A stretch of DNA of 64,000 bases from a virus: the UHGV virus genome UHGV-0240527; one strand, 5' to 3'. The number at the start of each line of letters is the position of its first letter. Positions within the stretch are counted from its first letter, which is position 1. Positions 1 to 58,730 of this stretch are shown here, piece after piece. A model generated the notes under the pieces. That model had not been told where the DNA came from, did no database searches, and worked only from the letters and a program-made list of their open reading frames with translations. Position numbers and translations under genes: made by a program.

Positions 1-23
1 AAAAAAATATTTGATAAAAACCG

Positions 24-52
24 TTGACACCCTAAAAAGGTTTACGTATTAT
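24..52 (+). promoter_or_regulatory. sigma70-type promoter (TTGACA, 17-bp spacer, TATTAT) upstream of first early ORF
   Basis: TTGACA at 24-29 and TATTAT at 47-52 read directly; GGAG RBS follows before ATG at 103. Confidence 0.5.
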
Positions 53-102
53 TTGCATCAGACGGGCAAGCTAGCCCACTTCCTAAACTGGAGAATCTAA
101 AA

Positions 103-294
103 ATGGCATCAAGAAAAATCAAAGTCGGTGATGAGGTTAACGTTAAGTATGAGCACTCTCATAAAATGTTAACTATTCGCTCTTACAAGGTTTATCAGGT
201 GGAAGCTATCCACGAAGACGGTACATTTTCCCTAAAAGGACATAGCGAACGTTTCCCTGCTGAATTGTTCGAAAAATGGAGTACTAAAAAATGA
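103..294 (+). CDS. hypothetical early protein
   Basis: ORF track; ATG preceded by GGAG RBS; part of co-oriented small-gene cluster. Confidence 0.6.
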   Translation: MASRKIKVGDEVNVKYEHSHKMLTIRSYKVYQVEAIHEDGTFSLKGHSERFPAELFEKWSTKK

Positions 295-497
295 TTTACA
301 GCCGTGAATTGATGGTTACAACTAACGTTAACACAAAGGCAAAACGTTTTTACATGCAAATCTGTGGCGTATGGTCCAGAATATCAGAAGCCGACTATTG
401 CAACTATGTAGAAACGGCAATCAACTCGAATTGCTACCTTACAAGAAGCACTAAGAATTTTACAAGGAAGACAGCGATTTACTACTACGATAAATAA
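291..497 (+). CDS. hypothetical early protein
   Basis: ORF track; start overlaps upstream stop (ATGA), suggesting translational coupling. Confidence 0.5.
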   Translation: MIYSRELMVTTNVNTKAKRFYMQICGVWSRISEADYCNYVETAINSNCYLTRSTKNFTRKTAIYYYDK

Positions 498-583
498 AGT
501 ACTTTACAAGGGGCTTACAGTTCGATAGAGTAAGCCCCAGATAAAGAGCTTTACTAACTAACCTTAAACTAGGAGATTCTAAA
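498..583 (+). promoter_or_regulatory. family A intergenic cassette: TTTACA/-10-like promoter overlapping GGGGCTTA..TAAGCCCC hairpin, conserved 5'UTR with GGAG RBS
   Basis: near-identical cassette occurs six times upstream of early ORFs; hairpin arms covary between copies. Confidence 0.5.
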
Positions 584-964
584 ATGGCTTATCGTGCACC
601 GAAATTCATCAACAAAGACAACTTTCGCAACGTACTGGAGAAGGCACTTGATGAAAAATTTAAAGGTAACATTATTATTGTTCACTCATTCAATTTTAAG
701 TATGACATCAACGGGAATAAAATAAACCATTACACGGCAACCATGTTAGATGGTACGCTATCAAGTGAAAAAGCCGTACTGAATGCACTTGCTGGACGTG
801 GTAAAAACCTGATAAGCTGCAATAAGAGACGTTATCAGGGTGGCGCATATGGTTATGATGATGCTGTTTACCATCTTGAAAATATGGGCTATTCAGTGGA
901 GAAAGCTGGAGTGTCTCAAATAATTGGTAGTGATGGCTATGTGACAATATTCAAAATTAAATAA
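584..964 (+). CDS. hypothetical early protein
   Basis: ORF track; conserved cassette and GGAG RBS upstream. Confidence 0.6.
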   Translation: MAYRAPKFINKDNFRNVLEKALDEKFKGNIIIVHSFNFKYDINGNKINHYTATMLDGTLSSEKAVLNALAGRGKNLISCNKRRYQGGAYGYDDAVYHLENMGYSVEKAGVSQIIGSDGYVTIFKIK

Positions 965-1051
965 AAAGTACTTTACAAGGGGCTTATAGTTCGGTAGAGT
1001 AAGCCCCAGATAAAGAGCTTTACCACTCAATCCTAAATTGGAGATTCTAAA
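965..1051 (+). promoter_or_regulatory. family A intergenic cassette (promoter, hairpin, conserved 5'UTR)
   Basis: TTTACA at about 972-977, TAGAGT at about 995-1000, hairpin at about 979-1007. Confidence 0.5.
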
Positions 1052-1342
1052 ATGGCTATTATCAAAAACGTTGTAATTCCTGCAAAAACTCGTGATGACG
1101 CTCGCATCATGGCGAAAAAGTTAGGCGGGAAAGTTGTTGACAACGGAAAACAATCTGCTGTAAGATGGGGCGTGAAGACTGATAGACAGTTGAAGTTAAA
1201 AAATTCACCCATAAACCTTTTTACATGTGTAAACACTATTGGGAAGACAAATGTATACACAAAAAAGGCATATATTAGACGCGTAGCCTTAACATCCCCC
1301 ATTCGTACAATGAGAGGTTATGCAAAACTGAAAATTAATTGA
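1052..1342 (+). CDS. hypothetical early protein
   Basis: ORF track; cassette and RBS upstream. Confidence 0.6.
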   Translation: MAIIKNVVIPAKTRDDARIMAKKLGGKVVDNGKQSAVRWGVKTDRQLKLKNSPINLFTCVNTIGKTNVYTKKAYIRRVALTSPIRTMRGYAKLKIN

Positions 1343-1430
1343 TAAAGTACTTTACAGGGGGCTTAAAAGTTGGTATCTTAAGCCCCAGATAAAGAGCTTT
1401 ACCACTAAATCCTAAACTGGAGATTCAAAA
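1343..1430 (+). promoter_or_regulatory. family A intergenic cassette (hairpin variant GGGGCTTAA/TTAAGCCCC)
   Basis: same architecture as the other family A copies with compensatory stem changes. Confidence 0.5.
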
Positions 1431-1943
1431 ATGAAAACTGTAGACGCTACCTTTGAAGTTGTAAAAGAAAAATTTACCATTATCTATGAAGCTGTTAATT
1501 GCTATGAAGCAAGCCACAACCTTGATAATTGGAAGTTTACGGATGACCATCAAGGCGGCGTGACTATTAAAAACCCCAACTATCAGTATAATGAATTTAA
1601 ATATGCAATCCCTTTACATTACAGCCTTAAACAGCTTTCAAGTGACTATGCAAAACAAGGCCGGGAAAATCCATCAAAAGAGGCTTACACCAGCTTACAG
1701 GGAGAACTAGAAAGGGATTTAGAGGCTTCAGAATATAACATTGCCGCGAAAGTTGTGGATGTAAACGGTAGAACGGTTTTAGACAGCTTTTACATTGGTT
1801 GCGCTTTTGATTGGGCCTATAGTGACGAGGAGAATTTAGAGGATAGACTAAGAGAAGAGGTGAACAACGCAGACGCAGAATCTGAAGTATTAGAACACTT
1901 GGAAGCATTAAAAGATTCAGTGATGAATATCTTTAAGGACTAA
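1431..1943 (+). CDS. hypothetical early protein
   Basis: ORF track; cassette and RBS upstream. Confidence 0.6.
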   Translation: MKTVDATFEVVKEKFTIIYEAVNCYEASHNLDNWKFTDDHQGGVTIKNPNYQYNEFKYAIPLHYSLKQLSSDYAKQGRENPSKEAYTSLQGELERDLEASEYNIAAKVVDVNGRTVLDSFYIGCAFDWAYSDEENLEDRLREEVNNADAESEVLEHLEALKDSVMNIFKD

Positions 1944-2031
1944 ATAGACCTCTTTACACGGGGCTATCAAGCTGATAAGATAGCCCCAGATAAAGAGCTT
2001 TACCACTAAATCCTAAACTGGAGATTCAAAA
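1944..2031 (+). promoter_or_regulatory. family A intergenic cassette (hairpin variant GGGGCTATC/GATAGCCCC)
   Basis: conserved TTTACA, 17-bp spacing to TAAGAT, conserved downstream UTR. Confidence 0.5.
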
Positions 2032-2328
2032 ATGAAATTATCAAATAAAGTCCGTGAAAATCTAAGCAAGTTGCTCAACAAAATTGATTTTATCGAGACA
2101 TCAAGGAATAGCCATGATGTTATGGAATGGTTACACGGCAAAATAAAAGGTCGCCGTGTAGTGATTTGCTTATGGAACAGTTGCAGGGAGTATAAAAAAC
2201 CTGTATTGCAAGTTAATATATACGATGATACTTTTAAAAGTCCTGTAAAGTCTAAAAGTGATTTATTAGAATCCTATGAGATAACTGTAAATGGCAAAGT
2301 ATCACGTAAAGAGGAAACACCATGTTAA
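2032..2328 (+). CDS. hypothetical early protein
   Basis: ORF track; cassette and RBS upstream. Confidence 0.6.
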   Translation: MKLSNKVRENLSKLLNKIDFIETSRNSHDVMEWLHGKIKGRRVVICLWNSCREYKKPVLQVNIYDDTFKSPVKSKSDLLESYEITVNGKVSRKEETPC

Positions 2329-2654
2329 TGACTGGTATCACTGCAATCATTGCCATTTTCGCGCTATATAAGGCATATAAAGCCTATAATCTAGCAAATA
2401 AGGCAATCACACAGCAGGTTAGCAATAGCCTTGTAGAAAGCTTTCTAGGGCGTCTCAGTGATGAGCAAATAAAGCGGTTAGAAATGAGCTTCAGATTCAA
2501 AGCGAAAACCTATCAGATAAGTGACATCTTCAAGGATGATTTCCAGTTAGCCGATGATTATAATTCTCTGATAAATGCTTTAAATATCAGTGACTTAAAA
2601 GACTACTACGCTGTAATTGTTCAAGAATTGAGCAAACGAAAACAAAACTGTTGA
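2322..2654 (+). CDS. hypothetical early protein
   Basis: ORF track; short overlap with upstream gene. Confidence 0.5.
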   Translation: MLMTGITAIIAIFALYKAYKAYNLANKAITQQVSNSLVESFLGRLSDEQIKRLEMSFRFKAKTYQISDIFKDDFQLADDYNSLINALNISDLKDYYAVIVQELSKRKQNC

Positions 2655-2743
2655 CACTTGTTTTTAGATAGACTAAATTACACATCAACGGGGAGGGAAT
2701 GACCTTCCCACTAAATAAAGTCCTTAAACTAGGAGATTCTAAA
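2655..2743 (+). promoter_or_regulatory. family B intergenic cassette: TTGACA, 17-bp spacer, TAAATT promoter followed by GGGGAGGGAATGACCTTCCCC UTR hairpin and GGAG RBS
   Basis: cassette occurs four times upstream of early ORFs. Confidence 0.5.
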
Positions 2744-3016
2744 ATGTATACTACTAACAATGGCCGCACTTTGAACGTCACACTACGTCACTATGTAGGT
2801 GGTGTCATGCACTTTGAAGATTTACAAGCTGAACAACATATCTTAGATTGGCAAGTAGCAGGACTCCAAAAAACTGCTACCGGATACGGCAAAAAGATTC
2901 CAACTAGCTGGAAAGTTCACTATGAAGGCCGTTTACGTAGAATTTATCAGGATGTATGTAGTAATAGCACATCAAGTTATATCATAGTAAAAGGTAAAAA
3001 GCTGCATTTAGCATAA
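2744..3016 (+). CDS. hypothetical early protein
   Basis: ORF track frame; start moved from 2699 to the ATG at 2744 that follows the conserved GGAG RBS (2699 lies inside the UTR hairpin). Confidence 0.55.
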   Translation: MYTTNNGRTLNVTLRHYVGGVMHFEDLQAEQHILDWQVAGLQKTATGYGKKIPTSWKVHYEGRLRRIYQDVCSNSTSSYIIVKGKKLHLA

Positions 3017-3101
3017 AGTACTTTACAAGGGGCTTATAGTTCGATAAAGTAAGCCCCAGATAAAGAGCTTTATCACTCAATCCTAAATTGGAGATTCAAA
3101 A
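3017..3101 (+). promoter_or_regulatory. family A intergenic cassette
   Basis: conserved promoter/hairpin/UTR module. Confidence 0.5.
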
Positions 3102-3506
3102 ATGACTATTAATAATCGTGAGTTATCAATCTTAAAAGCACGTTTGACCGTTAACCGGATTAATGTTATTACGTCATCAGCACCGGATGAGACATTGCAC
3201 AACATTATCGGGAAGATTCAAAGTGTTATCTTAGACGTTGAAAACGTAAAAAATTCATTAGCTGACGTTGCAGCAGGTATCACGCTAGACGGTGCACAAT
3301 ATGAAATGGCTGACATGTTAGGCAAATCTAAGGTAATGAATAAAGAGCTTGATTTAAAAATGTTCCGCTTTGCCGTGAAAGTGTGGCTATCTGTCGAGTA
3401 TGACGCAAATTTTGCAATCGCTGACTTTTTCGCAACATGGTTGCAACGTAATTTAACAAATCATGATTTCCGTGATATCTGCGACGTAATTTACGCAGAA
3501 CTTTAA
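3102..3506 (+). CDS. hypothetical early protein
   Basis: ORF track; cassette upstream. Confidence 0.6.
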   Translation: MTINNRELSILKARLTVNRINVITSSAPDETLHNIIGKIQSVILDVENVKNSLADVAAGITLDGAQYEMADMLGKSKVMNKELDLKMFRFAVKVWLSVEYDANFAIADFFATWLQRNLTNHDFRDICDVIYAEL

Positions 3507-3609
3507 AAATTTCTCTTGATTTTGGTTTTTAAAACAAGTAAATTACTAATCAACGGGGAGGGAATGACCTTCCCCACTAAGTAAAGTCCTTAAACTAGGA
3601 GATTCAAAA
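3507..3609 (+). promoter_or_regulatory. family B intergenic cassette
   Basis: TTGATT and TAAATT hexamers, GGGGAGGG..CCTTCCCC hairpin, GGAG RBS. Confidence 0.5.
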
Positions 3610-3813
3610 ATGGCTATTATTAACGGCTTAAACATTGAAACTACTCACATCAAAGATATCAAAGTTGGTGATATAGTCCTTTTTCACGGCGTAGAAAAAA
3701 CCGTCACTGAAAAGGATATCAAGGAGGATTCATTCATGGGCCGGACTCTCTTCGGTGATTCCTATTGCTTAGGTTACCTTGCAGTTTTAAAAGTTGTCAA
3801 AAATAACCGTTAA
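3610..3813 (+). CDS. hypothetical early protein
   Basis: ORF track; cassette upstream. Confidence 0.6.
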   Translation: MAIINGLNIETTHIKDIKVGDIVLFHGVEKTVTEKDIKEDSFMGRTLFGDSYCLGYLAVLKVVKNNR

Positions 3814-3899
3814 AGTACTTTACAAGGGGTTTATAGTTCGATAAAGTAAGCCCCAGATAAAGAGCTTTACCACATTAATCCTAAACTGGAGATTCAAAA
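3814..3899 (+). promoter_or_regulatory. family A intergenic cassette
   Basis: conserved promoter/hairpin/UTR module. Confidence 0.5.
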
Positions 3900-4442
3900 A
3901 TGAAATGCTTTCACGGTACTACTCAAGAAAACTTCGTCAACCTGATTAATAACGGTGATAAACCATCAGGCGCATGGAATTGTTCGGATATGGATGGCAA
4001 TTTTTACGTTTATCCAGAAAATAAAATCTATGGCGACGATGAGGAAGAAATAATCTCTGAAGGCATTCAACAAGCTTTAGGTAATGCCACTATAACGGCA
4101 GCTTTTCAGATGAAAACTCAAAACATTGTTATCTTGGAACTTGATATTCCAGAAGATGAGTTGAATGATGATTATTCTTGTGATAATATGTCGAGTGTGG
4201 CAAGTTTTACAGAGTATTTTGATATAAGCTGGATTAAAAAGGTTTATATCACTGAATTTAATGCTATGTTTTCACCTTTTTGTCTTCCTTCACTGGATAA
4301 CCCGAACTTAAACTATCTTGATGAGTCTCTGGAACTTCTCGCTAAAAGTGTTCAGCAATCGGACAGTATTCAGGTTTTTTGTGACATCATGGATACACTA
4401 ACAGGAAACATTGCAGAAGAGGATTTGAAGAGTTTTTTCTAA
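3900..4442 (+). CDS. hypothetical early protein (acidic)
   Basis: ORF track; cassette upstream. Confidence 0.6.
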   Translation: MKCFHGTTQENFVNLINNGDKPSGAWNCSDMDGNFYVYPENKIYGDDEEEIISEGIQQALGNATITAAFQMKTQNIVILELDIPEDELNDDYSCDNMSSVASFTEYFDISWIKKVYITEFNAMFSPFCLPSLDNPNLNYLDESLELLAKSVQQSDSIQVFCDIMDTLTGNIAEEDLKSFF

Positions 4443-4474
4443 AAACCTATGCAATCACCTTATAAACACTGATT

Positions 4475-4495
4475 AGCCCCTCACAGGGGCTTTTA
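4475..4495 (+). terminator. putative intrinsic terminator hairpin (AGCCCCT..AGGGGCT + TTTT)
   Basis: GC stem followed by T run, directly before AGGAGG RBS of next ORF. Confidence 0.45.
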
Positions 4496-4508
4496 GGAGG
4501 CTTTAATC

Positions 4509-4742
4509 ATGCTTACAACCATTTACCTCATCCTTTCTATCTGTAATGGTCATTCATGTGACTTTAAAGGGCTTGAAGAGTTTACAGGAAGTAAAGAAAA
4601 TGCTATTCAAGTGTGCCAGATAGCAAGGCAAGACTATCCCGCCAGTGATGATATTCAATGCTACTTTAAGACAGAAGATGACGATGGAATCTATTTCGAC
4701 AGTGTTGATGGTCAATATGAAATTATCATTGAAAAAGACTAG
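4509..4742 (+). CDS. hypothetical early protein
   Basis: ORF track; AGGAGG RBS. Confidence 0.55.
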   Translation: MLTTIYLILSICNGHSCDFKGLEEFTGSKENAIQVCQIARQDYPASDDIQCYFKTEDDDGIYFDSVDGQYEIIIEKD

Positions 4743-4831
4743 ACAAGCCTGATAAAAGTCTGTAAATTACACATCAACGGGGAGGGAATGACCTTCCCCA
4801 CTAAATAAAGTCCTAAACTGGAGTTATCAAG
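4743..4831 (+). promoter_or_regulatory. family B intergenic cassette
   Basis: TAAATT -10, GGGGAGGGAATGACCTTCCCC hairpin, conserved UTR. Confidence 0.5.
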
Positions 4832-5095
4832 ATGGAAAACGTAGAATTAACCACACTATTGCAGATTGCAACTGATAAAGAGGATGTAGCATTGTTCCAT
4901 CGCATCGAGAGTGATTTGTTCAATGGTGAAATCATCAAAGAGTCTTACGAAGTTGTCGGATTCAAAGATGGTAAAGCATTTGGCTTTTTTGACCTCGACA
5001 AAGGTAACGCGGTTACAAAGTACGATGTTCTATCTTGTGAAATTCTGACAAAATACAACGAAAAAAGGCTTGCAACCTACGCCAATATGCAGTAA
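4832..5095 (+). CDS. hypothetical early protein
   Basis: ORF track; cassette upstream. Confidence 0.55.
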   Translation: MENVELTTLLQIATDKEDVALFHRIESDLFNGEIIKESYEVVGFKDGKAFGFFDLDKGNAVTKYDVLSCEILTKYNEKRLATYANMQ

Positions 5096-5175
5096 ATTAC
5101 TAATCAACGGGGAGGGGATGACCTTCCCCACTAAATAAAACCCTTAAACTACTTCCTAAACTGGAGATTCAAAAA
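5096..5175 (+). promoter_or_regulatory. family B intergenic cassette
   Basis: TAAATT -10, GGGGAGGGGATGACCTTCCCC hairpin, conserved UTR. Confidence 0.5.
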
Positions 5176-5424
5176 ATGGCAACTATCCGCGCAATTGTAA
5201 ATTCTTATGGCTGCTACACTCTGGACGTTAAATTTGATATAGGCGGGACTGATGAGTGTTTCGAACTGGTGAAGACGGTCATTAAACAAGTTATCCCAGA
5301 CTATAACCCTACTGATGACTTCTGGAAAGATGCAGTAAAAGAGGCGTTGAGCGATGAATATCATTACCATTATTGGGGTGACTTGATTATCTCTCTGTAC
5401 TACAGCAAACAAGGTTACAACTAA
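5176..5424 (+). CDS. hypothetical early protein
   Basis: ORF track; cassette and RBS upstream. Confidence 0.6.
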   Translation: MATIRAIVNSYGCYTLDVKFDIGGTDECFELVKTVIKQVIPDYNPTDDFWKDAVKEALSDEYHYHYWGDLIISLYYSKQGYN

Positions 5425-5462
5425 TCGACGCAACGGGGCTATTTAGCCCCAGATACCTTTAC

Positions 5463-5490
5463 AGCCCCTTTCTCATAGGGGCTTTTTTAC
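5463..5490 (+). terminator. intrinsic terminator closing the early cluster
   Basis: AGCCCCT..AGGGGCT stem followed by TTTTTT; preceded by a family A-type GGGGCTA..TAGCCCC hairpin. Confidence 0.6.
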
Positions 5491-7095
5491 GTCTCTGTAA
5501 TAGCCTCTATACAACCCTTTCCCTTCCCTTTCCAGAATCTATCCCACTAATTCGATAGAATCTATCCCGTACCTTAAAAGCAATAACTCTATAGTCTACT
5601 CTATAACCTCTTATCAAATCAACTTAAATAAAAGCCCATAACCCGAAAGGGAAGGGCAACCATTTAAACGCTCTATAAAGCCCTATAACAGCCTTATCAA
5701 CCTAACTTAAGGGATTGCATTAACCCACTCTAAAAAGCCCTTTATAGAGCTTCCCAGAGCCTTAGAAGAATCTTATAAGGGTGTAAGCTTTATCATCTCG
5801 TTAGTATTCTTGTGAACTACTAAAAAGGGCTTGGTAGTTCCTTTAAAGTATGTTATAGGGGCTATAAAGTTACTTTGAAGTAGCTTAAAAGTTACGTAAA
5901 TGCTAGCCCCCTTAACATTTTCTTAACAATTTCTTAACAAACCCTACATAGTTATGCTTGTTAGAGACTTGTTAGCCCCTTGTTAAATCTCTGTTAAGAC
6001 CACGTAAAAGCCTTGTAAGAGTCTTTAGCATAGCCTTTAAAGCCTCTGTAAAGCCCTATAAAGAGCTATCCATACAGTTGAGGGGTAGATACTAGGAAGA
6101 GACTTAAAAGAGCTTATAAAGAGCTATAGAGAGCTTTTAAGAGGTATGTTTAGAGAATCACTAAGTAAGAGAGGGAACGATAAGGAAGAGTTAGTGACCA
6201 TGTTAATAGCTTGTTAAAAAGATTAAACACTTGTTAGGAACTTGTTAATTATCCCTACAAAATAACTCTTTAAAATTAACTTGTTAGCTCTTGTTAGTCA
6301 TCTGTTAAGATTCTGTAAAGTCTATGTATCAACTGTTAAGAAACTGTTACATCCTTGTTAGTTCTGTTAAGAATCTGTTAAGACCTTTGGAGAGATGTTA
6401 AGAGCTTGTGAGAACTGTTAAGAGATTGTTAAGGATATTTTAAAATTCTGCAAAGGGATGGTAAGGGAGTTGTTAAGGGTTACCAAGCAGATATACATCC
6501 TAATCAGATATTTTTGAGTTCCTTCAAAGACCCTAAAAAATGACTTGATAGTCCTATTTTATAAAAATTTTAAAAATCTGAATAATTACCTAGACAGTCT
6601 TTTAAAAATACAGGTAGAAACAGGCTTATAAGATACCTTGTTAGTACCGTGTTAGACCTTGTGAGATAAGGTCTGTGAAGATATTCCTGTTAAGTTTGTT
6701 AAAACAGTCTATATAGAGGTTTAGTAATACCTAGTGAACACCTATAGAGGGTAACATAGCTTACCTAGAGATTAAGAGGTGTATAGAGGCTTCTAAGAGC
6801 GTATAGAGAGATGGTTAAGGTGATTGTATAGGTTGTTAAGAAGGCTTGTTAGAAGATTGTTTATAAGGCTTATTAAAGGGCTAGTTAGAAGGCTTATACA
6901 GGGGGCTATTAAGACCACTAGATAGTTACTAAGATACTATATAGTACTATATAACTATATAGAGAGTAAGATTAAGGAGGTTGTTAAGAAGGATAGATAT
7001 TTTGTTCACATATGCTGGTGACCCAGAGGTTGGGACAACCGATAAAATTTTATAAAAATTAAAAAAGCCCCCAATTAAGGAGGCTCTTAAGGTAT
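5490..7095. repeat. 1.6-kb non-coding region dense in short direct repeats (TGTTAAG/TGTTAGG family, CTATAAAG/CTTAAAAG family)
   Basis: no ORF of 60 aa or more on either strand in the track; dozens of YTGTTARG copies read directly, e.g. around 5950-6010 and 6190-6480. Confidence 0.7.
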
Positions 7096-7097
7096 TT

Positions 7098-7721
7098 TTA
7101 AATCAGTGTTTCCAGAACTGTTTTTAGTGATGACTTGGTTGTCTGATAAAAATGAGTAAAGCCGTTGTTGTTATCGAATATCTGCATCATGATATCATCT
7201 CCCTTGATTGGGTATACTCGGATATCATAGTGAAAACCATTAAAGACACAAGACCCATTACAGAATGCACTAAAGTCATCCACTGAGATATACTCTTCAT
7301 GTCCTGTGATTTTTATACAGATACCTTTACTCGGTCTCTTAGGATTAATATCTTCCATCACAGACATATTCTGTCCACCAAGAGATACCATAGTGACCAC
7401 TTTACGGTTCTTCTGTCTAAAGTACATCTTAACTTTCTGCAAAGTGTCTTCATAGAACGGATAAGACCTAGCTACAAAGATTCCTTCAAGTGGCTCTTTA
7501 CCATTTTCAACTTCTCTGGTATGTCGTACTGCAAAGATAATTTGTTGGAACCAGTTAAGATTTTCTTCGGAGAGTGCTTCTCGAACATCACTCCAGTCAA
7601 GGACTAAGTAGTTACCTTCAACTTCTTTTAAGTTATCTTTTTCCATATCTATCACACCATTATCGTAAAACTTGATATTCTGGTACTGCGAATTTATTAC
7701 TATTGTTCTTGATGAGGTCAT
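7098..7721 (-). CDS. hypothetical protein
   Basis: ORF track; first gene of long minus-strand operon (last transcribed). Confidence 0.45.
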   Translation of the reverse strand: MTSSRTIVINSQYQNIKFYDNGVIDMEKDNLKEVEGNYLVLDWSDVREALSEENLNWFQQIIFAVRHTREVENGKEPLEGIFVARSYPFYEDTLQKVKMYFRQKNRKVVTMVSLGGQNMSVMEDINPKRPSKGICIKITGHEEYISVDDFSAFCNGSCVFNGFHYDIRVYPIKGDDIMMQIFDNNNGFTHFYQTTKSSLKTVLETLI

Positions 7722-15008: not shown

Positions 15009-15053
15009 TAAGTCTCCTTTGTAGAACAAGGCAGACCTACAGCTTTAAGTAAG

Positions 15054-15083
15054 ATGGTACAGTAATCCATACAACAAGTCAAG
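15054..15083 (-). promoter_or_regulatory. candidate sigma70-type promoter for the minus-strand operon (TTGACT, 18-bp spacer, TACCAT)
   Basis: hexamers read on the reverse complement; weak -10. Confidence 0.3.
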
Positions 15084-15105
15084 AACTATTGCAAGTTAAA
15101 AAAGT

Positions 15106-15130
15106 TGTTGACAAAGTACTTGACAAGGTG
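15106..15130 (+). promoter_or_regulatory. conserved tandem TTGACA element (GTTGACAAAGTACTTGACAAGGTG) in divergent promoter region
   Basis: near-identical 23-mer recurs at about 58109-58133 in the other divergent intergenic region. Confidence 0.45.
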
Positions 15131-15257
15131 TAGGCTTATAAATACTTAGAAGATAACTTAAAAGGTTCCTCTAAAAAGGCTATTTAAACAGATATCTTTC
15201 TGGATATCTATCTTTTATCTTAAAAGCCTTTTAAGAGGTCTTATAAGAGGCATACCA

Positions 15258-15629
15258 ATGAAAAACAGAACAAACAAAGGCCAGTTTAAAAAAGGCCAAT
15301 CTGGAAACCCATCTGGAAGACCAAAAGGCTCTCGCAACAAAAGCTCACTTGTAAAAGCTCAACTGACCATTGACAATTCTGCTGAGTTTGCTGCAAAGTT
15401 ATTTGAAGCGATTGTTACAAGGGATGCTGCTAAGCTTGCAGAGTTCGGGTTAAACACAGATGACGTAACCATCAAGAGTATGATTGAGGTCGGTAAAACT
15501 ATCTTTACTCACTCAGCAGGTGAGATGAAAGCACTTGCAGCAGACACTAAGAAGACTCCTGATAATGGTGGTCAACAACAGACAGATAACAAACCAACGT
15601 TCTCTGCTGTAGCGACTCTTAAAAAATAA
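15258..15629 (+). CDS. hypothetical basic protein with N-terminal GNPSGRPKG motif
   Basis: ORF track; lysine/arginine-rich N-terminus; motif read directly, function not assigned. Confidence 0.55.
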   Translation: MKNRTNKGQFKKGQSGNPSGRPKGSRNKSSLVKAQLTIDNSAEFAAKLFEAIVTRDAAKLAEFGLNTDDVTIKSMIEVGKTIFTHSAGEMKALAADTKKTPDNGGQQQTDNKPTFSAVATLKK

Positions 15630-15710: not shown

Positions 15711-17126
15711 ATGAGCGAATTATTTAAACATGCGCACCTTCATGCAGGTCGAACTGAAAATGGTGCTGTAAACCATACTTCATCAATGTCTGCTCTTGTA
15801 GACTTTTACAAAGCTGCTGGTTCAAGCCGTAGCAATGTAGAAATCTTACCAGACTTGTTCTACAAAGCTTTGCGTGAGGATGTTGATGTTGCAGTTCGTA
15901 TTTTGCTTCATATGCGAGATGTACGAGAAGGTATGGGTGAGCGTAAAGCCTTCAGAACTGTTTTGCTTCAAGCAATTGAAGATAAAGTTTTAGAGCCTAC
16001 ACAGGTTCTTCGCATTATGGATAAGATTGCAGAACTTGGTCGTTTTGATGACTTCAAAATCTTCGTGGGTACTTGTTTCGAGACAGATGCCTTCAAACAT
16101 TTAGAAGCAGCATTACTAGACCCTGCAACAGCAGGTTTGGCGGCTAAGTGGTTACCACGAGTCAAACCACGTCATAAGCAGTTTGTAAAACGTTTCTGCA
16201 AGTTTGCCAACTTGAGCGAGAAAGAGTACCGCACACTGTTATCTGCACTATCTGATACAGTTGAGCAAAAAATCTCTGCTAATGAGTTTGGCAAGATTGA
16301 CTACAGTAAGGTTCCCTCACTTGCTGCTGCACGTTACCAAAAACTGTTTAACCGTAAGGATGGAGAACGTTACAAAGCTTACATTGAGTCCTTATCAAAA
16401 GGTGAGGCTAAGATTAATGCTGGTGCTGTTTACCCATACGATGTGATTAAATCTGTCAAGCATGGTAATGCAGATGTTGCTAATGAGCAGTGGAAAGCAC
16501 TACCAAACTGGATGGCAGAAGGTGAAAACATCTTGTGTATGTCTGATGTATCAAGTTCAATGTCTTGGGTGAATTTTGGCTCCATTACTGCTCTGGATAT
16601 TGGTGTATCACTTGCCTTGTATGTAGCAGAACGCAATACAGGTTGCTTTAAGAATGAGTTGATGGTTTATTCAACAAACCCTCACTTCATCGAACTGAGT
16701 GGTGATTTACGAAACCGTCATCGTCAGGTGATGCGACACGTTGAATATGGCTCAACTAACTTACAAGCAGCTTTTGACCGCATTCTTGAGACAGGCAAAA
16801 GAAACAACTTGACTCAGAAAGATATGCCAAGTAAGCTTATCATCTTCTCCGATATGGAGTTTAATCAGGTTGATGGGGCTAACGGTCGTACAAACTTTGA
16901 AGCAATTCAGAGTAAGTACAAAAAAGCTGGATATGAGATGCCACAACTGGTATTCTGGTACTTAGCAAACCGTAATGGTACTTGCGAAGTATCTGTTAAG
17001 GATAACGGTGTAGCAATGGTATCAGGGTTCTCTCCAGCCACTTTAAAAGCTCTGCTTGGTGGTGAGAAGTTTGACCCAATCAGTGTAATGCTCAAAGCAG
17101 TAATGATTGACCGTTATATCTGGTAA
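15711..17126 (+). CDS. vWA-domain protein with Ro60/TROVE-like architecture (candidate RNA-binding protein)
   Basis: C-terminal MIDAS-like DxSxS (MSDVSSSMSW) and downstream FSDMEF; about 270-aa helical N-terminal region; family assignment is from architecture only. Confidence 0.45.
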   Translation: MSELFKHAHLHAGRTENGAVNHTSSMSALVDFYKAAGSSRSNVEILPDLFYKALREDVDVAVRILLHMRDVREGMGERKAFRTVLLQAIEDKVLEPTQVLRIMDKIAELGRFDDFKIFVGTCFETDAFKHLEAALLDPATAGLAAKWLPRVKPRHKQFVKRFCKFANLSEKEYRTLLSALSDTVEQKISANEFGKIDYSKVPSLAAARYQKLFNRKDGERYKAYIESLSKGEAKINAGAVYPYDVIKSVKHGNADVANEQWKALPNWMAEGENILCMSDVSSSMSWVNFGSITALDIGVSLALYVAERNTGCFKNELMVYSTNPHFIELSGDLRNRHRQVMRHVEYGSTNLQAAFDRILETGKRNNLTQKDMPSKLIIFSDMEFNQVDGANGRTNFEAIQSKYKKAGYEMPQLVFWYLANRNGTCEVSVKDNGVAMVSGFSPATLKALLGGEKFDPISVMLKAVMIDRYIW

Positions 17127-17144
17127 AAAGTTTTAAAAAGGGTA

Positions 17145-17173
17145 TTGACAATGTGTTTAATACCCTTTAATAT
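17145..17173 (+). promoter_or_regulatory. sigma70-type promoter (TTGACA, 17 bp, TAATAT) flanked by inverted repeat AAGGGTATT/AATACCCTT
   Basis: hexamers and spacing read directly; lies upstream of tRNA array. Confidence 0.5.
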
Positions 17174-17235
17174 GTTCTACATAGAAACGAAATGAGAGCT
17201 TTTCTAAGATACTGAAAAATATTTTAAAAAAGTTC

Positions 17236-17264
17236 TTGACAACCACTAAAAAATAATGTTAAAG
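17236..17264 (+). promoter_or_regulatory. candidate second promoter upstream of tRNA array (TTGACA, weak -10)
   Basis: TTGACA at 17236-17241; -10 ambiguous. Confidence 0.3.
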
Positions 17265-17291
17265 TGTTTACATAGAGTTTGAAAAGTTTAT

Positions 17292-17368
17292 CTCTGTTTA
17301 GCTCAGCTTGGTAGAGCGTTCCGTTTGGGGCGGTAAGGCCGGAGGTTCAAGTCCTCCAACAGAGACCA
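17292..17368 (+). tRNA. tRNA-Pro (anticodon UGG)
   Basis: manual cloverleaf: 7-bp acceptor CTCTGTT/AACAGAG, T-loop TTCAAGT, anticodon loop TTTGGGG, CCA encoded. Confidence 0.65.
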
Positions 17369-17375
17369 AATTAAT

Positions 17376-17453
17376 GTTCCAGTAGACAAAATGGTAAAGT
17401 CACCACTCTTTCAAAGTGGATATCTGAGGGTTCAAATCCCTTCTGGAACGCCA
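17376..17453 (+). tRNA. tRNA-Glu (anticodon UUC)
   Basis: 7-bp acceptor GTTCCAG/CTGGAAC, anticodon stem CCACT/AGTGG, loop CTTTCAA, CCA encoded. Confidence 0.7.
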
Positions 17454-17543
17454 GTTTTGACAGAAGACCAATTACAGCAAACTTAATCTACTCATCTGAA
17501 AGTTAATCGGACAAAGAAGATATTTGGTCTGGTCATTAAGAAT

Positions 17544-17620
17544 TGCGGGTATAGAGAAAGGGCGTCTCACATGTCTCATTAGCATGGTATCGGCAGGTTC
17601 GACTCCTGCACCCGCCTCCA
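17544..17620 (+). tRNA. tRNA with CAU anticodon (Met, initiator or Ile2); non-canonical features
   Basis: T-arm GCAGG/CCTGC and 6 of 7 acceptor pairs with 1:72 mismatch; anticodon loop CTCATTA; 3-nt 8/9 linker. Confidence 0.45.
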
Positions 17621-17703
17621 AATTTACAGAAGACCGTTTACAGCAATATTTATTAAATTTTTAGCGGAAAAATTGAAAGATACGGTCTGGTAATACTAAA
17701 CAT

Positions 17704-17780
17704 GGTTAGGAAGCACATAAGGTATGTGCGGTCGCCTGTTAAGCGAATGGCACAGGGTTCGAATCCCTGACTAACCGCCA
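17704..17780 (+). tRNA. tRNA-Asn (anticodon GUU)
   Basis: acceptor GGTTAGG, D-stem GCAC/GTGC, anticodon loop CTGTTAA, T-loop TTCGAAT, CCA encoded. Confidence 0.7.
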
Positions 17781-17849
17781 AATTTAGGAGAGAAGTGATT
17801 GCTCACCGATTTGTAAGGTGCAAGTCCTTAGCCTGAATAGAAATTAAAT

Positions 17850-17937
17850 GTGTCGTTATCCCGTAGATGGTAGCGGTGGGGACTGTAAATCCCTTGTCAT
17901 TGAGACTCGGTAGGTTCGACTCCTACACGGCACACCA
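17850..17937 (+). tRNA. tRNA-Tyr (anticodon GUA), long variable arm
   Basis: acceptor GTGTCGT/ACGGCAC, anticodon stem GGGGA/TCCCT, loop CTGTAAA, 88 nt, CCA encoded. Confidence 0.7.
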
Positions 17938-23287: not shown

Positions 23288-23308
23288 TTCTATTTGCGGA
23301 GGTGCTTA

Positions 23309-24910
23309 ATGGACTTAAATGCTGTTAAGCAGAAGCGAGTGGAAGATGTTAGGAAAGTCCTAGCTGGAGAGTTGGGGCTTTCTGATGAAGTAAAAGAAAT
23401 TATCAAATCATTCGGTAAAGACCCCTCTAAATTCCTTCCAACTCAAATTCTGACTTTATTAAGATACACACCAGACCAAGTTAGACTTATCTTCAAATTG
23501 ATGACTGATAAGAATTATGTAGCCCCTCAGCCGGGTTCTCAAGAGGTCTTTTTAAATACTAATGCTGACTTGGTTCTCTATGGTGGTGCTGCTGGTGCTG
23601 GTAAAACTGCTGCATTGTTAATGGATTCTTTAAGGTTTATTGAAGACCCTAACTATAATGCTGTATATTTCCGTCGAAATACAACACAGCTACAAGGTGG
23701 TTTATGGCCTGCTGCAAAGAAACTATTTGGTAAGTTTGGTGGGGTTCCTCACGAGCAGAAGATGACTATCACATTCCCTTCTGGGGCAACTATCAAGTTT
23801 ACTTATTTAGAACTTGAAAAACACGCTGAAGGTCATCAGGGTATTGAATACTCAGCTATTTACTTTGACGAAGGTACACACTTCTCTGCTTCACAGATTT
23901 CATACCTACAAACACGTCTGCGTTCTGGTGCTGAAGGTGATTCATACATGAAGATTTCTATGAACCCAGACAGAGACCACTTTATTTACGATTGGGTAGA
24001 ACCTTTCTTAGATGAAGAAGGTTATCCAGACCCTGAAAAGTGTGGTCGTATTCGTTGGTATGTAATGAATGACGGTGTGATGGTTTCTGATTGGGAGAGA
24101 GACAAGATTCTTGAAATGTTCCCTCTTGAGATTCCTCAAACATACACCTTTATCTCTGGTACGATTGATGATAACCCAATCCTTGACTTCTTAGAGCCTA
24201 AGTACCGTGGTAAGTTGGAAAACAACACCCCTGTAAACGTTGCAAGACTTCGTTTCGGTAACTGGAAGGCTCGTGCAGAAGGTTCAAACTATTGGCAAAG
24301 ACAATGGTGTGAGATTGTTGATTCACTCCCAGAAGATGTATTCGATGTTAGAGCATGGGACTTAGCAGCAACTTTACCATCTGAGATTAACCCTAATCCA
24401 GACTGGACAGCAGGTGTTAAGATGGGTAAATCTAAAAAAGACGGTTGCTATTATATCATTGATGTAGTAAGATTTAGAGATAGACCCTCTGGAGTCGAAA
24501 CACAAATTAATTTGACTGCTGAAAGTGACGGTAAGCGAACTGGTATTTTTATCCCTCAAGACCCAGGCGCTGCTGGTAAATCCTACGCAACATCCCTCAT
24601 CAGGAAACTTGCAGAGAAAGGTTATCGTGCAAGAGCTAAACCAACAAATAAAGATAAAGTTACCCGATTTGCGGGGTTTTCTGCTGCTTCTGAAGCCGGA
24701 CTTGTAAAAGTCTTGAGAGGTAGTTGGAATGAAGCTTATTTTCAAGAGCTTGAAGGCTTTTGTGGTGATGGTAAAACTAAAGATGACCAAGTGGATGCTA
24801 CCAGTGATGCTTTCAACAGTCTTAACGAAGTTAAATTATTCAAGCCACCATCAATGGGTGCTCACACAGACTTAGTGAGAGGAAACCCATATGAGGGGCT
24901 TAGACGTTGA
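23309..24910 (+). CDS. terminase large subunit
   Basis: Walker A-like LYGGAAGAGKTAAL near N-terminus; position directly before the portal gene; start moved to ATG with GGAGG RBS. Confidence 0.8.
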   Translation: MDLNAVKQKRVEDVRKVLAGELGLSDEVKEIIKSFGKDPSKFLPTQILTLLRYTPDQVRLIFKLMTDKNYVAPQPGSQEVFLNTNADLVLYGGAAGAGKTAALLMDSLRFIEDPNYNAVYFRRNTTQLQGGLWPAAKKLFGKFGGVPHEQKMTITFPSGATIKFTYLELEKHAEGHQGIEYSAIYFDEGTHFSASQISYLQTRLRSGAEGDSYMKISMNPDRDHFIYDWVEPFLDEEGYPDPEKCGRIRWYVMNDGVMVSDWERDKILEMFPLEIPQTYTFISGTIDDNPILDFLEPKYRGKLENNTPVNVARLRFGNWKARAEGSNYWQRQWCEIVDSLPEDVFDVRAWDLAATLPSEINPNPDWTAGVKMGKSKKDGCYYIIDVVRFRDRPSGVETQINLTAESDGKRTGIFIPQDPGAAGKSYATSLIRKLAEKGYRARAKPTNKDKVTRFAGFSAASEAGLVKVLRGSWNEAYFQELEGFCGDGKTKDDQVDATSDAFNSLNEVKLFKPPSMGAHTDLVRGNPYEGLRR

Positions 24911-58050: not shown

Positions 58051-58108
58051 TTTTACTCCCTCTAAAATCATTAACCTCATACATTACTGCAAAAAATTAT
58101 AAAAAGCA

Positions 58109-58133
58109 AGTTGACAATGTACTTGACAAGGTG
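58109..58133 (+). promoter_or_regulatory. conserved tandem TTGACA element (GTTGACAATGTACTTGACAAGGTG), second copy
   Basis: matches 15106-15130 element; lies in divergent region between polymerase operon and plus-strand genes. Confidence 0.45.
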
Positions 58134-58307
58134 TTAATCTTTGCGAAGTGGGTTTTTACTTAAAAGGTTACTTAACAGTTTAACTATACAGATACTTTAA
58201 AGCTCTTAAAAGATTATTTAATAGCTTTTAAAAAGCTTTAAAGTATAACGTATAGAATACGTTAAGATAAAAGATTAAAACTTAATAGTTACTTAAAAGA
58301 GGCTTAC

Positions 58308-58730
58308 ATGCAGAAAATGTTTGTTCACCCAGACATAGCTGACTTTGTTAGAGCTTTGCAGAAGTTGGAAGAACTTGACATTGCTGCTCAACGGGAATAT
58401 GCTCACCATCACAGGAGAATGGTTGATATACAACATGAAATAGAGTTATCAGAAGACTATGAAGATGACTTAAAATGCTCTGTGTTCGAGCACATGAAAG
58501 ACGTTGCTATAGCTAGACGTAAAGCTAAAGATACAGTTGCTTTACTAGATTCTCTTAAAAAGAGGTTGCAAAGTGGTACAGACCTGTGTAATCTAGCATC
58601 ACTGATTAACGATGTTGAAACTTCTTGGGACAGGCATTACTATCCACGTTCTGAAAAGACACTTGACTTTTCTTCATCTGAAAACTTAAAATGCTCTAGA
58701 AAGAAACTTAACCAACTGAGAGAGAAATAA
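58308..58730 (+). CDS. hypothetical protein
   Basis: ORF track. Confidence 0.5.
   Translation: MQKMFVHPDIADFVRALQKLEELDIAAQREYAHHHRRMVDIQHEIELSEDYEDDLKCSVFEHMKDVAIARRKAKDTVALLDSLKKRLQSGTDLCNLASLINDVETSWDRHYYPRSEKTLDFSSSENLKCSRKKLNQLREK

Follow-up and report, generated by a model that had tools for sequence, protein, structure and literature searches.

Within the 64,000-nt stretch of the virus genome UHGV-0240527 analysed here (the window, to whose positions all coordinates refer), two gene blocks converge on a non-coding, repeat-rich block, and each of them ends in a terminator. On the left side lies a cluster of small early genes on the + strand, the last open reading frame (ORF) of which stops at 5424. 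A terminator scan placed an intrinsic terminator at 5463-5490 (+), which closes this cluster as the last transcription unit before what we propose to be the right end of the phage chromosome. On the right side, the first - strand ORF (7098-7721) stops at 7098 and is followed by an intrinsic terminator at 7055-7088 (-), which closes the first transcription unit inside the proposed left end, a unit that reads outwards. The block between these two terminators occupies 5491-7054. A preliminary description, made from the window sequence, had delimited it as 5490-7095, in good agreement with these limits, and had reported that it contains no ORF of 60 aa or more. This is borne out, since the longest ORF between 5425 and 7097 on either strand encodes 41 aa. 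The small-gene cluster, which it had called strongly promoted, is enriched in sigma-70-like sites, with 32 in window 1-5500 as compared to 17.3 ± 3.8 expected. Many of these promoter-like sites are intergenic, lie on the + strand and have the form TTTACA-N17-TA(A/G)A(G/T)T; they agree with the promoter and hairpin repeats of 57 bp that were pointed out when the Felix O1 genome was published.

When positions 5400-7200 were used as a query, 257 phage records were matched, nearly all of them belonging to the genus Felixounavirus or to its sister genus Mooglevirus, and mostly at 80-95% identity. In Felix O1, the query is matched with 89% identity by AF320576 12281-14030. Judged from these matches, the phage is a Felixounavirus, that is a Felix O1-like myovirus, and not a T5-like phage. 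Its TerL protein (23294-24910) carries the Terminase_6N and Terminase_6C domains and shares about 99% of its residues with the TerL proteins of NBSal004 and of other relatives that bear a direct terminal repeat (DTR). In a published tree, TerL of the Felix O1 type falls in a DTR group (PMC4837284).

DTRs have been described in three close relatives, namely Pr103Blw (581 bp) and Ro111lw (613 bp), both by PhageTerm, and UAB_Phi87 (608 bp), by Bal31 digestion and run-off sequencing (PMC4837284). The Pr103Blw record is deposited from the true left end and annotates 1-581 and 87841-88421 as short direct terminal repeat; its base 1 aligns to window position 5906, and the alignment is colinear from there onward into the - strand genes. 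In Pr103Blw, Ro111lw, E9, NBSal004 and NBEco005, deposited by several groups, the beginning and the end of the record are the same 580-694 bp sequence, homologous to 5906-6484. The left boundary is the same in all five records, ...GTTACGTAAATGCTA/GCCCCCTTAACATT... (TGCTA/GCCCCC, where the slash marks the cut), and so is the right boundary, ...GTTAAGGGCTACC/AAGCAGATATACATC..., the short forms being ...TGCTA/GCCCCCTTAACA and ...GGCTACC/AAGCAGATATACA, respectively. Other deposited records also start at the exact base of the left boundary. The identity of the boundary sequences across records from several laboratories indicates fixed, non-permuted termini. In the window, these boundaries fall at 5905/5906 and 6484/6485, and therefore the window holds a single, collapsed copy of a 579-bp DTR. 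Mapping of the same boundaries gave 614 bp in the UAB_Phi87 record, as compared to the published 608 bp, and 569 bp in Felix O1, which fits the short terminal repeats that its original authors inferred from pulsed-field sizing. The DTRs described in Felixounavirus and other Ounavirinae phages (Pr103Blw, Ro111lw and UAB_Phi87) are homologous to it at 85-93% identity and lie in the same gene neighbourhood.

Since the assembly was opened elsewhere and retains one DTR copy, the genome ends look like an internal gap between genes. The preliminary description had taken the block for an internal boundary and had listed a genome-end repeat region as the last of several alternatives. It is this alternative that stands, because the terminal repeats of the relatives map to 5906-6484; the physical chromosome ends sit inside the block, and the two gene blocks converge and terminate there. 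That the block consists of the DTR and its end flanks, as shown in close relatives, is very probable.

The anatomy of the block can be described from left to right in the window. The right-end unique non-coding flank (5491-5905, 415 nt) is C-rich on the + strand and carries octamers of the CTATAAAG, CTTAAAAG and CTTTAAAG types. Its last ~20 nt (AAAGTTACGTAAATGCTA) are conserved and adjoin the left DTR boundary from outside. In five records, Pr103Blw among them, DNA homologous to the flank immediately precedes the DTR copy of the right-hand end. The DTR (5906-6484) follows, present once here and expected at both ends of the virion DNA. Its left edge (5909-5940, -) contains three TGTTAAG motifs, read as CCCTTAACA and then TTAACA twice (starts at 5912, 5923 and 5934; period 11 in Tandem Repeats Finder); these - strand units, 11 nt apart, point to the left cut. 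The sequence CTACATAGTTATG at 5944-5956 is invariant in 14 genomes of three genera, and the motif orientation switches at this point, all DTR units being on the + strand from 5957 on. The interior arrays (5957-6433, +), with a spacing of 10-12 nt, comprise TGTTAG and TGTTAA units at 5957-6017 and 6201-6252, a separate array of CTNTAAAG and AGAGCT units at 6035-6143, and the main CTGTTAAG array at 6280-6433. At the right edge (6471-6484, +), TGTTAAGGG is followed by TTACC and by the cut, forming an inverted counterpart of the left edge. In fact, the two DTR edges are the only places in the block where TGTTAAGGG is found, and its copies at 5909-5917 (-) and 6471-6479 (+) are inverted with respect to each other, so that virion DNA read inwards begins alike from either end.

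Just outside the right DTR boundary, at 6485-6497 (+), lies AAGCAGATATACA, which is unique in the window and kept in all four Ounavirinae genera examined, and is therefore a candidate cleavage or recognition element. It opens the left-end unique non-coding flank (6485-7054, 570 nt), which includes an AT-rich segment and arrays of TGTTAG, TATAGAG, GGCTTAT and CTATATAG; between them, the two flanks carry units of the CTATAAAG, CTTAAAAG, TATAGAG and CTATATAG kinds. The 14-mer ATTTTATAAAAATT, which contains the palindrome TTTTATAAAA, is present exactly twice in the window, at 6556-6569 and 7047-7060, both in the left-end flank. Both copies lie within stretches that are invariant across 14 genomes, and the copy at 7047-7060 runs into the T-tract of the - strand terminator. 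In the same flank, GCTGGTGA (7014-7021) differs by one mismatch from the E. coli Chi octamer and is not an exact Chi; relative to the nearer genome end, its orientation is the one inactive for Chi.

The short repeats of the block were counted and their spacing was analysed. The strict motif YTGTTARG is present 12 times on the + strand and twice on the - strand, at a density 34 times that of the rest of the window. A wider family, CT[ATG][ATG][AT][AGT]AG, covers CTATAAAG, CTTAAAAG, CTGTTAAG and CTTGTTAG, all named in the preliminary description. It has 43 + strand copies in 5491-7054, as compared to 5.3 ± 2.3 in first-order Markov shuffles, and its density is 27.5 per kb in the block vs. 2.9 per kb elsewhere in the window. 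The dozens of YTGTTARG copies claimed earlier thus hold for the wider octamer family and not for the strict motif, which has 14. TGTTAR copies number 0 in the right flank, 19 in the DTR and 7 in the left flank, and TGTTAAG-type units are essentially a feature of the DTR. The preliminary description had suggested comparing the repeat number with related genomes: in 13 relatives the DTR contains 17-20 TGTTAR copies, a number that is held although DTR length spans 569-694 bp.

Spacings between neighbouring octamers concentrate at 10-12 and 20-23 nt, and base autocorrelation of 5490-7095 peaks at lags 10-11 (z 7.4-7.8, the rest of the window serving as reference), harmonics being seen near 21 and 32 nt. 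Tandem Repeats Finder likewise reports many short arrays of period 10-12 in the block. Lags 3 and 6 are not raised in the same autocorrelation, so a 3-nt periodicity is not seen. Static bending was considered as an explanation and rejected, because the predicted curvature is only a little over background: in a wedge model, whose values are approximate, it was 16.2 degrees per 21 bp for the block and 17.6 for the DTR, as compared to 14.5 ± 0.9 in controls. The end-to-end compaction and the AA/TT periodicity of the block are unremarkable.

The block is the most conserved non-coding DNA that we saw in the window. In an alignment of 13 genomes from two genera, identity to the window is 0.83-0.95 in most 50-nt bins of the block and falls to about 0.6 at three places, as compared to 0.64-0.92 for the flanking coding DNA. 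In Mooglevirus the DTR DNA is 76-80% identical, and the protein of 207 aa encoded next to the block is 47-56% identical in Mooglevirus and Suspvirus. Of 230 records, 201 match a 60-mer spanning the left boundary with an identity of 95% or more. Octamer positions are conserved at 0.89 vs. 0.81 for the rest of the block, and the TGTTA core at 0.92-0.96 vs. 0.77-0.85 for the spacers (permutation p = 0.001). Insertions and deletions of more than 8 nt tend to measure 11-12, 21-24 or 32 nt, that is whole repeat units. These identities place the block above its flanking genes in conservation, and the block is under selection. Since the block exceeds the flanking genes and the cores exceed the spacers, the motifs can be read as protein-binding sites.

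Outside the genus, the boundary sequences are kept in Mooglevirus (Mordin, Sf13, Sf16) and Suspvirus (mistaenkt). A more distant case is given by the Erwinia phage phiEa21-4 (Kolesnikvirus), whose TerL is 69.5% identical. It has a syntenic non-coding block at 16472-17912, of which only short patches align to the window. Residual boundaries were recognised in it, TTA/GCCAC...TTAACA on the left and .../AAGCAGATATACA on the right, from which a DTR of 439 bp at 17028-17466 was predicted. When this segment was used in a search, Kolesnikvirus records were found whose start or end lies only a few bases from it. In particular, it is matched by positions 1-439 of vEam_PM_21, whose record contains a second copy, by positions 1-439 of SPARTY, and by 84250-84688 of 84690 in vEam_W_28. 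The deposited termini confirm the blind prediction and therefore the boundary signature is predictive across four genera. The DTR of phiEa21-4 keeps the 11-nt periodicity (z = 8.8) and the TGTTAR arrays. Its right-end flank (EU710883 16472-17027) contains 13 copies of TTCTAA(A/G) on one strand, with none in the DTR or in the other flank, at the place where felixounaviruses have CTATAAAG-type units; divergence has thus affected the flank motifs and spared the DTR motif.

Taken together, we assign a probability of about 0.88 to the reading that the ends of the phage genome, joined as in a concatemer junction, lie in the block together with a 579-bp DTR. Several points weigh against it. The window contains a single DTR copy, and the termini of this particular phage are placed by homology. 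The identity between the beginning and the end of the deposited records is partly due to their construction, because rearrangement in the style of PhageTerm copies the repeat; the independent evidence on the termini consists of the read-derived boundary positions and of one wet-lab mapping, that of UAB_Phi87. Part of the higher conservation of the motif cores may be an alignment artefact of repetitive DNA. Across the whole block, the octamers are helically more coherent (R = 0.48 at a period of 10.45 bp) than under random placement (p = 0.002), but the excess is marginal (p ~0.05) with respect to a null that keeps tandem neighbours and jitters the longer gaps; we claim phasing as local only, the block-wide register being marginal. 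The TGTTAAGGG element lies 3 nt inside the left cut and 5 nt inside the right one. Mooglevirus has a different sequence outside the left cut, and phiEa21-4 has a different one inside the right DTR edge. These unequal offsets and edge differences make the idea of a symmetric site tentative. Finally, neither a small terminase nor another binding protein was identified for the block.

In phages of the T7/T3 type, each concatemer junction contains one repeat, terminase cuts at both boundaries and the repeat is duplicated during packaging. By analogy, replication of the phage studied here would give concatemers with one DTR copy per junction. Terminase, positioned on the block, would cut at the conserved boundary sites 5905/5906 and 6484/6485, and the DTR would be duplicated so that each packaged chromosome receives a copy at both ends. 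This cutting and duplication chemistry is a proposal drawn from the anatomy of the block and from the T7/T3-type phages. The TGTTAAG and CTNTAAAG octamers, spaced by 10-11 nt, would offer sites on one face of the helix to a recognition protein, which may belong to the terminase or be an accessory factor. The inverted TGTTAAGGG at the DTR edges would orient this protein to each cut, and the protein, assembling along one DNA face, would position the nuclease. The one-turn spacing, the conserved cores and the polarity towards the cuts make the units look like protein-binding sites. Their most likely role is in terminase recognition and cutting, an assignment that we hold tentatively and rate at somewhat less than an even chance. 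The preliminary description had suggested a protein-binding array for partition or packaging. Of these two, packaging is our best guess, and partition is disfavoured, because the flanking genes, which were the only ones screened, contain no partition ATPase or centromere-binding domains.

A candidate for the binding protein was sought among the genes of the window. The ORFs just upstream of TerL match unknown-function PHROGs only, and no T7-like small terminase was found. A protein of 123 aa with a DUF5681 domain (15258-15629, +) has an invariant GNPxGRPKG-like N-terminus and heads the rightward operon that contains TerL. The DUF5681 domain occurs in some small terminases. The protein is possibly a small-terminase-like binding protein, a candidate only by its position and this domain: it has no sequence match in the PDB, AlphaFold models it poorly (pLDDT 68), and Foldseek returned nothing significant, the small terminases of G20c and P74-26 appearing at E ~3. 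The neighbouring gene at 15711-17126 (+) encodes a protein of 471 aa with DUF2828 and DUF7788 domains, assigned to the PHROG 'RNA-binding protein', and lies immediately upstream of the site where relatives carry a large cluster of tRNA genes.

The alternative that survives best is that the phased octamers bind a protein, of the phage or of the host, that is not involved in packaging and acts in coating or protection of the incoming ends, in recombination into concatemers or as a promoter regulator, in which case the identity of the DTR would hold all the same. Beyond the cut sites, the arrays extend over about 1 kb, a greater length than cleavage would require. Moreover, CTTAAAAG-type octamers also cluster in the leaders of the near-identical promoter regions 15051-15350 and 58051-58400, and therefore that sub-family is not specific to the termini. 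We nevertheless consider this alternative unlikely, since no candidate protein was found for it and the TGTTAAG-type units, concentrated in the DTR and oriented to the cuts, fit end formation better. Apart from the block, the CTNNNNAG octamer family forms clusters in the window at these two promoter regions only. They are divergent intergenic regions of about 230 nt each, with a near-identical element, GTTGACAA(A/T)GTACTTGACAAGGTGT, followed by a leader rich in CTTAAAAG, CTTTTAAG, CTTATAAG and CTTTAAAG, and they precede the + strand genes that start at 15258 and 58308. These clusters may be a shared regulatory site.

An iteron-type replication origin, alone or together with the DTR, was among the earlier suggestions and received no positive support. 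What could favour it is that phased, direct short repeats adjoin an invariant AT-rich element (6554-6572), which includes the palindromic ATTTTATAAAAATT copy at 6556-6569. T7 has secondary origins close to its ends. However, the units are 8-mers one helical turn apart (10-12 nt) and not iterons of 17-22 bp, and the block has no DnaA box. The flanking genes are without Pfam match and belong only to PHROG families of unknown function, so that no recognisable initiator is present next to the block. The GC skew is not informative on this point because its sign change follows gene strand across the whole window. For these reasons we regard an origin as improbable, while an origin role of the AT-rich element of the left flank is possible.

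The array might also consist of -10-like elements that capture the host RNA polymerase on the entering DNA, since TGTTAAGAT is similar to the extended -10 TGnTAAGAT, a few units of the array have the sequence TGTTAAGAT or TGTTAAGTT, and the early promoter-like sites of the phage use TAAGAT or TAAAGT as second hexamer. This reading was dropped as very improbable because most units lack the final T, which is found at the last -10 position in only about 2 of 12 CTGTTAAG-type units; in addition, sigma-70 promoter-like sites occur in the block at chance level (9 vs. 7.7 ± 2.8 expected).

It is even harder to sustain that the block is functionless low-complexity DNA produced by slippage and merely tolerated at the genome ends. 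The DTR does vary between 569 and 694 bp by gain or loss of units of about 11 nt. However, the block is more conserved than the neighbouring genes across three genera, the motif cores exceed the spacers in conservation, the TGTTAR copy number is steady at 17-20, and the architecture is kept in Kolesnikvirus despite sequence divergence. The reading preferred in the preliminary description, a T5-like injection-stop signal separating the first-step-transfer (pre-early) DNA from the early DNA, was suggested by a non-coding block rich in repeats and palindromes beside a promoter-rich cluster of small genes, but it can practically be discarded, given that the phage is not T5-like, that the terminal repeat is 579 bp and not 10 kb, that the chromosome ends lie within the block, and that the small-gene cluster reads to the genome end and stops at a terminator. 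The convergence of the two gene blocks on this region also departs from the layout in T5.

Hidden genes and structured RNAs were considered as well. Among nine ORFs of 25-41 aa in the block, the larger ones (33-41 aa) are intact in 0 of 13 related genomes, and small genes were rejected. An ORF of 26 aa at 6418-6498 (-) is intact in all the 13 related genomes compared. It crosses the right DTR boundary and would be whole only in concatemeric or circularised DNA, and it is without a ribosome-binding site; it is probably a by-product of the conserved cut-site DNA. ORFs of 25-73 aa are annotated inside the terminal block of E9, UAB_Phi87, LMP25, LMP33, LMP34, NBSal004 and phiEa21-4 (gene 32). They are not conserved between genomes and probably represent over-annotation. 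Rfam at permissive E-values gave only chance-level matches in the block, so structured RNA was rejected, and a tRNA scan of the block found none.

The kind of element is already known, the DTR in the window being another copy of the Felix O1-like DTR. With respect to the DTRs of Pr103Blw, Ro111lw and UAB_Phi87, it has the same boundaries and neighbourhood, and nothing essential differs. The published descriptions of Felix O1-like DTRs that we found give only the length and do not mention the repeat architecture. As far as could be found, the phased arrays, the inverted TGTTAAGGG edges, the boundary signature shared across genera and the exceptional conservation have not been described.

Outside the Ounavirinae, the closest likeness is to the concatemer junction of T7 and T3, whose pac recognition and cleavage sites were defined in packaging studies. 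There, too, a short exact DTR with fixed ends is accompanied by a core of 7-8 nt about every helical turn. The T7 left end contains YCTAAAG or ATAAAG at 12-14-nt spacing in nt 175-360, together with three copies inside the 160-bp repeat. In our block, arrays lie on both sides of the terminal repeat, the octamers being found in both flanks and in the DTR. The T7 core CCTAAAG resembles CTATAAAG and CTTAAAAG, a likeness limited to the short core, since the T7 arrays have no sequence homology to the block and similarity searches return essentially only Ounavirinae. Moreover, the DTR described here is 3.6 times longer and itself filled with repeats, and its flanks are promoter-free stretches of 0.4-0.6 kb bounded by terminators, whereas the T7 left end has early promoters that read inwards. 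To our knowledge, the function of the T7 arrays is itself unsettled.

Two other systems share single traits with the block. The T5 injection-stop region is similarly non-coding and rich in repeats and palindromes, but the stop site lies inside a terminal repeat of ~10 kb, some 8% from the end, in another phage family, whereas our block contains the ends. The centromere of the parC type of plasmid R1 consists of 11-bp iterons bound cooperatively by ParR, and it resembles the block in its many short direct repeats one helical turn apart, the geometry expected of a protein filament or wrap on one DNA face. Unlike parC, the block has no partition gene adjoining it, belongs to a lytic phage, and contains an array ten times larger located at the chromosome ends.

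A more ambitious possibility, which we regard as rather doubtful, is that the chromosome ends of the Ounavirinae, a subfamily with no recognisable small terminase, are the site of a dedicated nucleoprotein platform built on the roughly 45 phased octamers. A protein, perhaps the DUF5681 protein, would polymerise along one face of ~1.5 kb of DNA and would be guided by the inverted TGTTAAGGG edges in placing the two DTR cuts. Since the octamer is also present in two promoter leaders, packaging would be coupled to gene expression. If this were true, terminase recognition would be organised unlike the compact pac and cos sites studied so far.

The placement of the ends has a direct practical consequence. 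In many deposited Felix O1-like genomes, as in this one, the terminal repeat is collapsed and the sequence starts at an arbitrary point, and the boundary sequences ...TGCTA/GCCCCC... and ...CTACC/AAGCAGATATACA let the true ends be placed by inspection in four genera. The block also provides a defined, testable packaging substrate, on which DNA recognition and cutting can be addressed in phages that have no known small terminase and are widely used in therapy and diagnostics.

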